A DNA stretch of 63,171 nucleotides, the filler included, from Hausera hauseri (taxonomy: Eukaryota), in NCBI GenBank assembly GCA_046269625.1. It is 11 parts of 11 records of this genome, joined end to end, with 100 filler letters (N's around TTAATTAATTAA, not from the genome) between each part and the next. Parts side by side here need not be neighbours in the genome. Positions count along the whole stretch, not along the records: positions 25,070 to 31,608 come from JBJURY010089321.1; 10 more parts are not named here. One strand, given 5' to 3'. Below are positions 30,401 to 31,608 of this stretch, one piece after another. Each line of letters begins with the position of its first letter. Within the stretch, counting starts at the first letter, position 1. The notes under the pieces were generated by a model. It was not told the DNA's origin. It worked only from the letters and a program-made list of their open reading frames with translations, and did no database searches. The position numbers and the translations under genes are program-made.

Positions 30401-30995
30401 CATATACATAGGCGATTCTTGTTCCTTTTCTAAGCAACTTAGGTTTATTAGAGGCATTGGCTATTCGAACAATCACTTGTTGTCCTCGAATGTTATCAAT
30501 TGTATGAGCTAACCATAACTCATTCTTGTCCATGAAGGTTATATTTGGTTCAATATAAACATCTCCTTCATCTCGGCCCTCTAATAGAGCTTTGAGCATA
30601 ATCACCGTTCTAGCCGGTATTAACACGTCTTCCTTAATGGCCAGTGTGTCCTTTTTCTCATTCTTTGTGTTTAATATGGCTGGATTTGTTGAGTCTCCAG
30701 ATGTACACACATATGTTTTAATTTTTCTAAGGCCTCACATCCGAGTATAGTTTCAGCCAACAATTCGTCGGCTATTCTAAATTCCTGTTCAATTTTTTTA
30801 TTAAGAACTGTTGTCTCGCATTTGACCAAATTCTTTACTTGTACTATGGTTCCAAATGCCGTGTGGGTTTTTTGCAACTTTTTCTGCAGTTGTTCTGAGA
30901 GTTGTTTACGTAAGATCATTGAGGCTGATTCTCCTGTGTCAATTATAGCTGTAATAGGATATCCATCTATCTAAATTACTGTTCTCGGAATTATC
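27430..30995 (-). mobile_element. Ty3/gypsy pol (PR-RT-RH-IN), decayed
   Basis: AIIDTG at about 30940; [92 protein letters not shown]. Confidence 0.95.
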
Positions 30996-31339
30996 ATATT
31001 TCTTTCTGTAATGTTTATTCGAAACGTCTTTTGGAGGTCATGGATAGTACATTAGCTTTACATGTTTTTGATCATAATTATCCACATCGCTTGAGAAATA
31101 TATATCTATATATTCGTTGGAAGGTATAAATGTGATTGCTCCATTGGGTATTCATTCCACTTCCTAATTTGTGGCATATCTGATAACAATGTTCTCCTAT
31201 TTTTACTTCGAGCGATAATCATATTCCATGTCTTTTTCATATTTTCTATTGGTTTAATTCTTCTCGCGTTTATCTTCTTTTACTGGAGGTTTGTCCTCAG
31301 CATTATTATCGTCTTCCTCATTCTTATTTTTATTTTTTG

Positions 31340-31608
31340 CTTCCATTCGGCATTTTTCTTTATCAAAAAGCAACTGGCTATGGATGAAATGAATGCGTAA
31401 ATAGTTTTCCATGTACAACCAGCGGCTTGTTTAATACCATATCCCTTAGTTATTATAGTCAGAATTGCTTTAATAAAGGCAAATATGTAGTAAAATCCTA
31501 GCTATCTAGAATTAAATTAATTATCCTCATGCGGTTGCGAATATTTTTTTAGCTATTTTCTTTGCATAATCAGATCCCATCAAATTTTCCTAGTTAGTTT
31601 TTCCGTTG
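31340..31608 (-). pseudogene. C-terminal membrane region of a chuvirus-like glycoprotein, upstream of the protease
   Basis: 31498-31340 reads GFYYIFAFIKAILTIITKGYGIKQAAGCTWKTIYAFISSIASCFLIKKNAEWK. It aligns with AIYFLIQLIKAVTQAVINGYEIYTLTGFLCKILTAIITPLGKF/LKAYEENRWK at 51670-51830. Not in the ORF track. Confidence 0.75.

Follow-up and report, generated by a model that had tools for sequence, protein, structure and literature searches.

Errantiviruses of Nematoda, Bryozoa and Platyhelminthes carry an ENV of the HSV/gB type in the order GAG-ENV-POL (Chary and Hayashi, 2026; PMC13524379), and the same survey describes the chuvirus-like glycoprotein as gB-like, finds the gB-type GAG-ENV-POL elements to be polyphyletic, cites Sacco et al. 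(2022) for the nematode elements and states that its search left other ORF arrangements aside. A second point of comparison is provided by the bdelloid LTR elements Juno and Vesta, whose ORF3 encodes a DEDDy exonuclease (Rodriguez et al., 2017; PMC5408684). The locus described here has in common with the GAG-ENV-POL errantiviruses of that survey (PMC13524379) a Ty3/gypsy pol, a gB/chuvirus-like glycoprotein no more than 2,000 nt before pol and a deep divergence among elements of the same order; unlike them it is broken, lacks Gag and LTRs within its contig and has a second membrane gene after the integrase.

The window, that is the whole stretch of DNA analysed (63,171 nt, Hausera hauseri), consists of 11 contigs with N spacers between them, including contig 3 (10743-15457), contig 6 (25070-31608) and contig 9 (47278-52953). 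Contig 6 is read on the minus strand, with an env tail at its right end, and carries in order on this one strand the env tail, protease, reverse transcriptase (RT), RNase H, integrase, a signal-like peptide, probable FN3 domains, a transmembrane (TM) helix and an exonuclease-like domain. We consider it probable that contig 6 represents a decayed Ty3/gypsy retrotransposon of the GAG-ENV-POL type, in which a gB-type (chuvirus-like) glycoprotein precedes pol and an accessory membrane-protein gene follows the integrase. The nematode endogenous retroviruses (NERV) of Sacco et al. 2022 are reportedly metaviruses with env before pol in a continuous gag-env-pro-pol frame, and their extra captured ORFs are said to encode a small protein or a helicase. 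Contig 6 is like NERV in having env before pol, and unlike the reported NERV in that its cargo is an FN3-TM-exonuclease protein; in this decayed copy the linker is closed. The env-first order has already been described and contig 6 is one more divergent, decayed example; the membrane modules that flank pol, and especially the downstream gene, are the more interesting feature.

Because the ORFs of contig 6 are broken by stops and frameshifts throughout, the copy is dead, and it differs in this from the published GAG-ENV-POL set, which was defined by uninterrupted ORFs. Both ends of the contig fall within coding sequence, short of any flanking LTRs; the contig ends 110 nt upstream of the env tail, and the positions of the G ectodomain and Gag lie past 31608. 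An A-rich strand bias was continuous along the whole contig, and no LTR-like repeats were found between its parts, just short repeats at chance level. An Rfam scan of contig 6 gave no matches, and in a prokaryotic genome scan a single stretch of the 41 matched, over fewer than 30 aa, which is uninformative.

The env tail (31337-31513, minus strand) corresponds to the C-terminal membrane region of a chuvirus/gB-type glycoprotein. Its 53-aa stretch (31498-31340, minus strand) lies in a stop-free frame bounded by stops at 31504 and 31282, and matched Pfam PF24664 (Monjiviricetes_fusion) both alone (profile positions 556-605 of 653, E = 0.0016, 16.9 bits) and with its flanks (positions 551-609 of 653, E = 7.8e-5, 21.3 bits), both scores lying under the curated cut-off of 27 bits. 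Against contig 9 (51573-51794) the tail aligned without gaps over 38 aa with a score of 52, which was equalled by 12 of 20,000 full shuffles (of either side) and by 38 of 20,000 shuffles in blocks of eight, whilst the reversed query scored 21; across the window's 6,300 six-frame segments contig 9 was the best non-self match of the tail, the next scoring 46. An earlier note on this DNA had proposed that the 53-aa segment aligns with the membrane region of the contig 9 glycoprotein (G), and had named shuffled sequence as the check: the alignment withstood this check, the PF24664 match is independent of it, and IKA, GYxI, G, K and AxI all recur, but the counterpart of the final WK is found in another frame of contig 9 only. 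The protease motif AIIDTG, expected about 400 nt after the segment, was located 391 nt on, at 30949-30932. A gB-type env within 2,000 nt upstream of pol is represented in contig 6 by its tail only, about 350 nt before the protease. The tail is moderately hydrophobic only (best 19-residue mean 1.44). In the contig end upstream of it (31514-31608, minus strand) there was no significant match to the contig 9 G or to Pfam, the last 110 nt having been compared with the former in all three frames and scanned against the latter in one, and 110 nt of decayed sequence give little power to detect G homology.

Between tail and protease lies a linker (31007-31337, minus strand) across which no frame is open, and which contains an acidic stretch (31337-31275) and a PKDVS-like word (31037-31017). 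By eye, contigs 3 and 9 also have this word ahead of their proteases; when the linkers were aligned, its likeness was not significant, the best score being 33 with contig 3. The acidic NEEDDNN (31322-31302), which had been thought comparable to the acidic stretch of contig 9, is indeed present, and the two acidic stretches match modestly (score 45, 23 of 5,000 shuffles as good), but they are of low complexity, NEEDDNN is in a different frame from the tail, and the acidic stretch stands about 27 codons closer to the tail in contig 6 than in contig 9. No composition break and no LTR-like repeat was found at the env-pol junction. On any reading path the 330 nt of linker contain at least 4 lesions, compared with 9 in the 3,560 nt of pol (p = 0.02, hand counts), so that a single Env-Pol frame is no more than possible for contig 6; contig 3 has its acidic linker and its protease in one frame. 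We regard the chances that Env and Pol were encoded in one frame as even.

Pfam matches on the frames of contig 6 follow the Ty3/gypsy order of protease, RT and RNase H, then integrase. The retroviral-type aspartic protease (30716-30988, minus strand; RVP, E = 6.7e-5) carries AIIDTG and one stop, and its best matches were contigs 3 and 9. It is followed by a spacer domain (30390-30674, minus strand) that aligned to contig 3 (score 75, reached by none of 1,000 shuffles) and to the database protein P0026 (score 82, the best of 96); this domain had no Pfam match, and we take it to be dUTPase-like, of the beta-clip type. RT and RNase H (28850-30131, minus strand; RVT_1, 2.6e-20; RT_RNaseH, 2.6e-34) contain stops and one frameshift near 29755, and the RT active-site motif (29581-29570) is degenerate. 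The integrase (27474-28519, minus strand; Integrase_H2C2, 1.2e-17; rve, 9.8e-13) comprises zinc finger, core and a tail bearing GPY (27569-27561), with one stop and one frameshift. Among database matches to the contig 6 RT the best 120 of 1,046 (E ≤ 1e-40) were all gypsy-type pol proteins, 31-46% identical.

The same order of G and pol recurs in contig 9, in which a near-complete but broken G gene (50260-51800, plus strand; YDC at 50278, ELPV at 51190, tail to about 51800) stands before the protease (52536) and matches PF24664 over profile positions 72-172, 366-424 and 478-609 (best E = 3.7e-20). Upstream of this G lies a stretch of decayed coding sequence about 3 kb in length (47280-50250, plus strand), which would be long for a Gag; four Pfam scans of the contig 9 frames upstream of G gave no Gag or zinc-knuckle match. 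Contig 3 (10743-15457, minus strand) is the sister of the contig 9 element, with a full pol behind its in-frame acidic linker and a signal-peptide-like stretch (11290-11237) after the integrase. The protease of contig 6 is divergent from both, as had been claimed: contigs 3 and 9 score 337 against each other, whereas contig 6 scores 91 against contig 3 and 88 against contig 9. These two scores nevertheless exceed those of all 96 database pol proteins compared (best 75), these being the proteins with enough N-terminal sequence among the best 120 of 1,046 pol matches; since the database set was picked by RT likeness to contig 6, the score rankings are biased.

P0026, itself found by RT likeness, encodes in one open frame protease, RT and RNase H as well as a PF24664 domain (E = 1.5e-5) and a hydrophobic helix, and the spacer domains of contig 6 and contig 3 both score highest with it. 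It also carries a G ectodomain and a basic furin-like site in the same frame, and its precomputed Pfam list omits the G domain. PF24664 was in none of the 120 precomputed Pfam lists of the best 120 of 1,046 pol matches, and on rescanning was found in one of 16 (P0026). In a hydropathy scan of 36 pol matches with long N-termini P0026 was not singled out, three scoring higher, and its G tail gave no alignment above chance with that of contig 6 or that of contig 9 (1,098 and 1,514 of 2,000 shuffles as good). When long polyproteins carrying the G tail of contig 9 were sought by a word-based and hence weak method, none was found among 58 candidates.

The alternative to an order of the element's own is chance nesting, in which a piece of an endogenous chuvirus-like G, or another element's end, came to lie beside an unrelated gypsy pol. 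G-like endogenous viral elements are common among invertebrates in the literature, the linker is the most lesion-rich part of contig 6, and the RT trees described below do not join contigs 3 and 6. Against this, contig 9 and P0026 share the strand and order of contig 6, its protease is nearest those of contigs 3 and 9, an acidic stretch follows the tail in both contigs 6 and 9, the junction has neither repeat nor composition break, and the layout is already on record (PMC13524379). We consider chance nesting a long shot. The same order in contig 9, the nearest proteases, the single G-protease-RT frame of P0026 and the seamless junction together make it highly probable that env-before-pol is the element's own layout.

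Whether this layout is a trait of one lineage is a separate matter. P0026 and contig 6 were paired in three of four RT trees, with supports of 91 (123 rows), 88 (42), below 80 (20) and 47/83 (19, longer alignment), trees in which long branches were flagged, the smaller ones being hand-picked subsets of the first, and no reference clades included. Monophyly of contigs 3 and 6 in RT/RNase H was recovered in none of the four, and constraining contigs 3 and 6, or these with P0026, together was not rejected (AU p = 0.323). The RT of contig 6 is 34% identical to that of contig 3 and up to 46% identical to those of other database elements, and several of these database elements carry a CCHC Gag directly before the protease. 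The earlier proposal that env-before-pol is a lineage trait rather than chance nesting is accordingly upheld for the element's own architecture, by contig 9 and P0026, but not for a single lineage, which none of four trees recovers (AU p = 0.32), the published elements of this kind being polyphyletic as well. The layout probably belongs to the element itself, and one lineage with contigs 3 and 9 is neither established nor rejected. A more distant gypsy pol, 27% identical to contig 6, is present in contig 10 (54380-57230, plus strand), and a related region is found upstream in contigs 2, 10 and 11 alike.

Directly after the integrase tail, in the same open frame (27764-27177), comes a hydrophobic stretch (27372-27422, minus strand) that is a candidate signal peptide as judged by hydropathy (1.83 for a span of 19 aa and 2.87 for one of 12 aa). 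After one frame change there follows a frame of 508 codons, a single stop and then 200 codons to the contig end. The ectodomain contains a first probable FN3 domain, cytokine-receptor-like (26822-27085, minus strand), recognised by its WSGWS motif (26854-26840), by Atlas and by single-sequence models, and, between Thr-rich linkers, a second probable FN3 domain (26492-26785, minus strand) with matches to Pfam Tor_FN3_1st under the cut-off (E = 0.041 and 0.012). An LxPxTxYxV word in the latter (26548-26522) is presumably of the FN3 type. The top Atlas matches of the ectodomain were cytokine receptors (0.87, a lead only), and the best matches of two single-sequence models (pLDDT 42 and 56) were FN3 folds (Z 5.5 and 6.8), the pLDDT 56 model aligning with IL-9R over 87 residues (Z 6.8, rmsd 2.7), which is weak fold support. 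Foldseek returned no match at E ≤ 0.001 for either model (E ≥ 0.058 for the second), all VIA Z scores were below 8, and a PDB sequence search with the ectodomain gave one irrelevant match (E = 0.31). The FN3 identity is therefore best described as probable, from converging weak lines of sequence and model evidence. Pfam matches of the cargo to Cys_Knot_tox (E = 0.027-0.069), Vpu and DUF families were taken as chance.

A TM helix (26377-26312; hydropathy 3.13, helix pLDDT about 90) followed by a basic stop-transfer stretch (26296-26270) forms the membrane anchor (26270-26377, minus strand). The cytoplasmic region behind it (25388-26269, minus strand) spans about 290 codons, with an in-frame stop at 25675-25673, a further hydrophobic stretch (1.87) and a single weak, probably spurious Pfam match. 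Like class I cytokine receptors, the contig 6 protein has a probable FN3 fold, a WSxWS motif after a YxIxYR strand and a single TM helix; unlike them it has no sequence homologue, its WSxWS domain is not membrane-proximal and it carries a nuclease-like domain on the cytoplasmic side. Class I cytokine receptors have a proline-rich Box1 just after the TM helix, and the first 50 residues past the helix of contig 6 contain no proline.

The last domain, cut by the contig end (25070-25387, minus strand), is ISG20/REX4-like and of the DEDDh exonuclease type, an assignment firmer than that of FN3. In the PDB it matched ISG20 (1wlj, E = 1.2e-6 over 82 aa), ISG20L2 (0.0054) and SDN1 (0.017), and in Atlas RNase_T (0.93, 175 shared features), and it had no match in Pfam. 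An aspartate common to all three aligned structures is replaced by a non-acidic residue, and the stretch just outside the alignment, equivalent to ExoI under our assumed placement of the ExoI and ExoII positions on this domain, is without D or E; the histidine and aspartate of ExoIII would fall past the end of the contig at 25070. With the testable catalytic positions non-acidic, the domain is probably a pseudo-nuclease, to judge by its residues, and decay could have contributed to this. Juno and Vesta likewise have a 3'-5' exonuclease-family domain behind the pol of an LTR retrotransposon; their ORF3 is RNase D-like, DEDDy, catalytically intact and free of TM domains, in elements without a true env (PMC5408684), whereas the contig 6 domain is ISG20/REX4-like and apparently inactive, follows a membrane protein of receptor-like type and belongs with an element in which G is also present.

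No homologue of the 508-aa downstream frame was found among 4,064 candidates or 1.84 billion representatives, and a literature search, which covered few subscription papers, returned nothing relevant on FN3, WSxWS or ISG20/REX4 cargo in retrotransposons; the words 'fibronectin' and 'exonuclease' do not occur in the main text of PMC13524379. To judge by its abstract, Troyka gave no indication of relevance. The gene is apparently undescribed, and is represented by one decayed copy.

With no homologue, no second copy and no 3' LTR within contig 6, the FN3-TM-exonuclease frame might instead be a host gene, a processed gene or a separate insertion adjoining the integrase. It is slightly richer in C and poorer in G than pol, nothing similar lies behind the contig 3 integrase (best score 46), and a strongly hydrophobic segment was present in none of 120 pol relatives (the best 120 of 1,046). 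However, the signal-like stretch is a continuation of the integrase frame, from which no LTR separates it, the roughly 2.3 kb contain no introns, strand bias is the same and third-codon make-up similar to pol, and the gene occupies the place of accessory ORF3 genes in other LTR elements (PMC5408684). A foreign origin thus appears rather unlikely, and the downstream gene probably belongs to the element. A signal-like stretch also follows the integrase tail of contig 3, unrelated in sequence to the contig 6 cargo, so that cargo at this position may extend beyond contig 6; in contig 3 some 150 codons (11230-10743, minus strand) follow it to 10743, with no Pfam match, apparently a second gene of another kind behind an integrase. 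Membrane modules are present on both sides of pol in contig 6, as the earlier note had it, but its claim that contig 6 alone has them is qualified by the contig 3 stretch (11290-11237); the apparent uniqueness arises because contig 3 starts after the tail position and contig 9 ends before RT.

With two membrane proteins in one element, G could also have been reduced to a membrane-anchor remnant that had lost its ectodomain, the downstream FN3-TM protein having replaced it at the surface. The 110 nt at the contig end, in which no G homology was detected, and the tail's moderate hydrophobicity would fit such a loss, as would the fewer lesions of the downstream frame, which has 2 in its 2,350 nt compared with 9 in 3,560 nt. 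The lesion difference between cargo and pol is, however, not significant (p = 0.22), the 110 nt have the low power already mentioned, and neither Pfam nor the fold searches gave the FN3-TM protein any resemblance to a fusogen; we regard the replacement of G as improbable.

The active copy would have expressed Env and Pol as one polyprotein or from two adjacent frames. G would have entered the ER, its tail keeping Pol at the cytosolic face as the site of particle budding, and Pol would have been set free by the protease. The hydrophobic stretch after the integrase may have acted as an internal signal sequence, yielding a type I membrane protein, whose FN3/WSxWS ectodomain would most likely have been an attachment partner or an immune decoy beside the fusogen, whilst the probably inactive nuclease domain could have bound RNA on the cytosolic side. 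Such a role of the cargo, as attachment partner or immune decoy on the outside and as a dead nuclease that binds RNA on the inside, is speculative. A further reading, also tentative, is an enveloped gypsy lineage with two-protein entry, in which a gB-type fusogen is encoded before pol and a captured cytokine-receptor-like type I protein, with an inactive ISG20-like domain inside, follows the integrase as attachment factor or immune decoy, possibly all in one polyprotein crossing the ER membrane on both sides of Pol. If the gene belongs to the element, an invertebrate retrotransposon combined a class III fusogen with a second surface protein, receptor-like and linked to an ISG20-like domain. 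This, if true, would parallel the way in which large enveloped viruses divide fusion from attachment or immune evasion among separate proteins; surveys restricted to GAG, ENV and POL would overlook such a downstream gene.

Elsewhere in the window, the Pfam scans having been confined to contigs 3, 6, 8 and 9, contigs 1 (500-3100, minus strand) and 5 (22600-23330, plus strand) share decayed frames (E = 4.5e-11) that we take to resemble a Polinton-type DNA polymerase. Near 20830-21130, contig 5 contains a frame resembling a cysteine protease and, by self matches, it has a tandem repeat at its end (24430-24969). In contig 11 two host-like frames (58740-59240 and 60390-61900, both plus strand) presumably encode, by their resemblance to the eye, an FKBP-type isomerase and a Clueless/TPR protein. 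An intronless frame of 608 codons in AT-rich DNA (41893-43719, plus strand) encodes a POT/PTR2 peptide transporter (PF00854, E = 3.3e-23), and beside it, at about 44550-46300, lies a remnant that we assume to be a piggyBac-like transposase.
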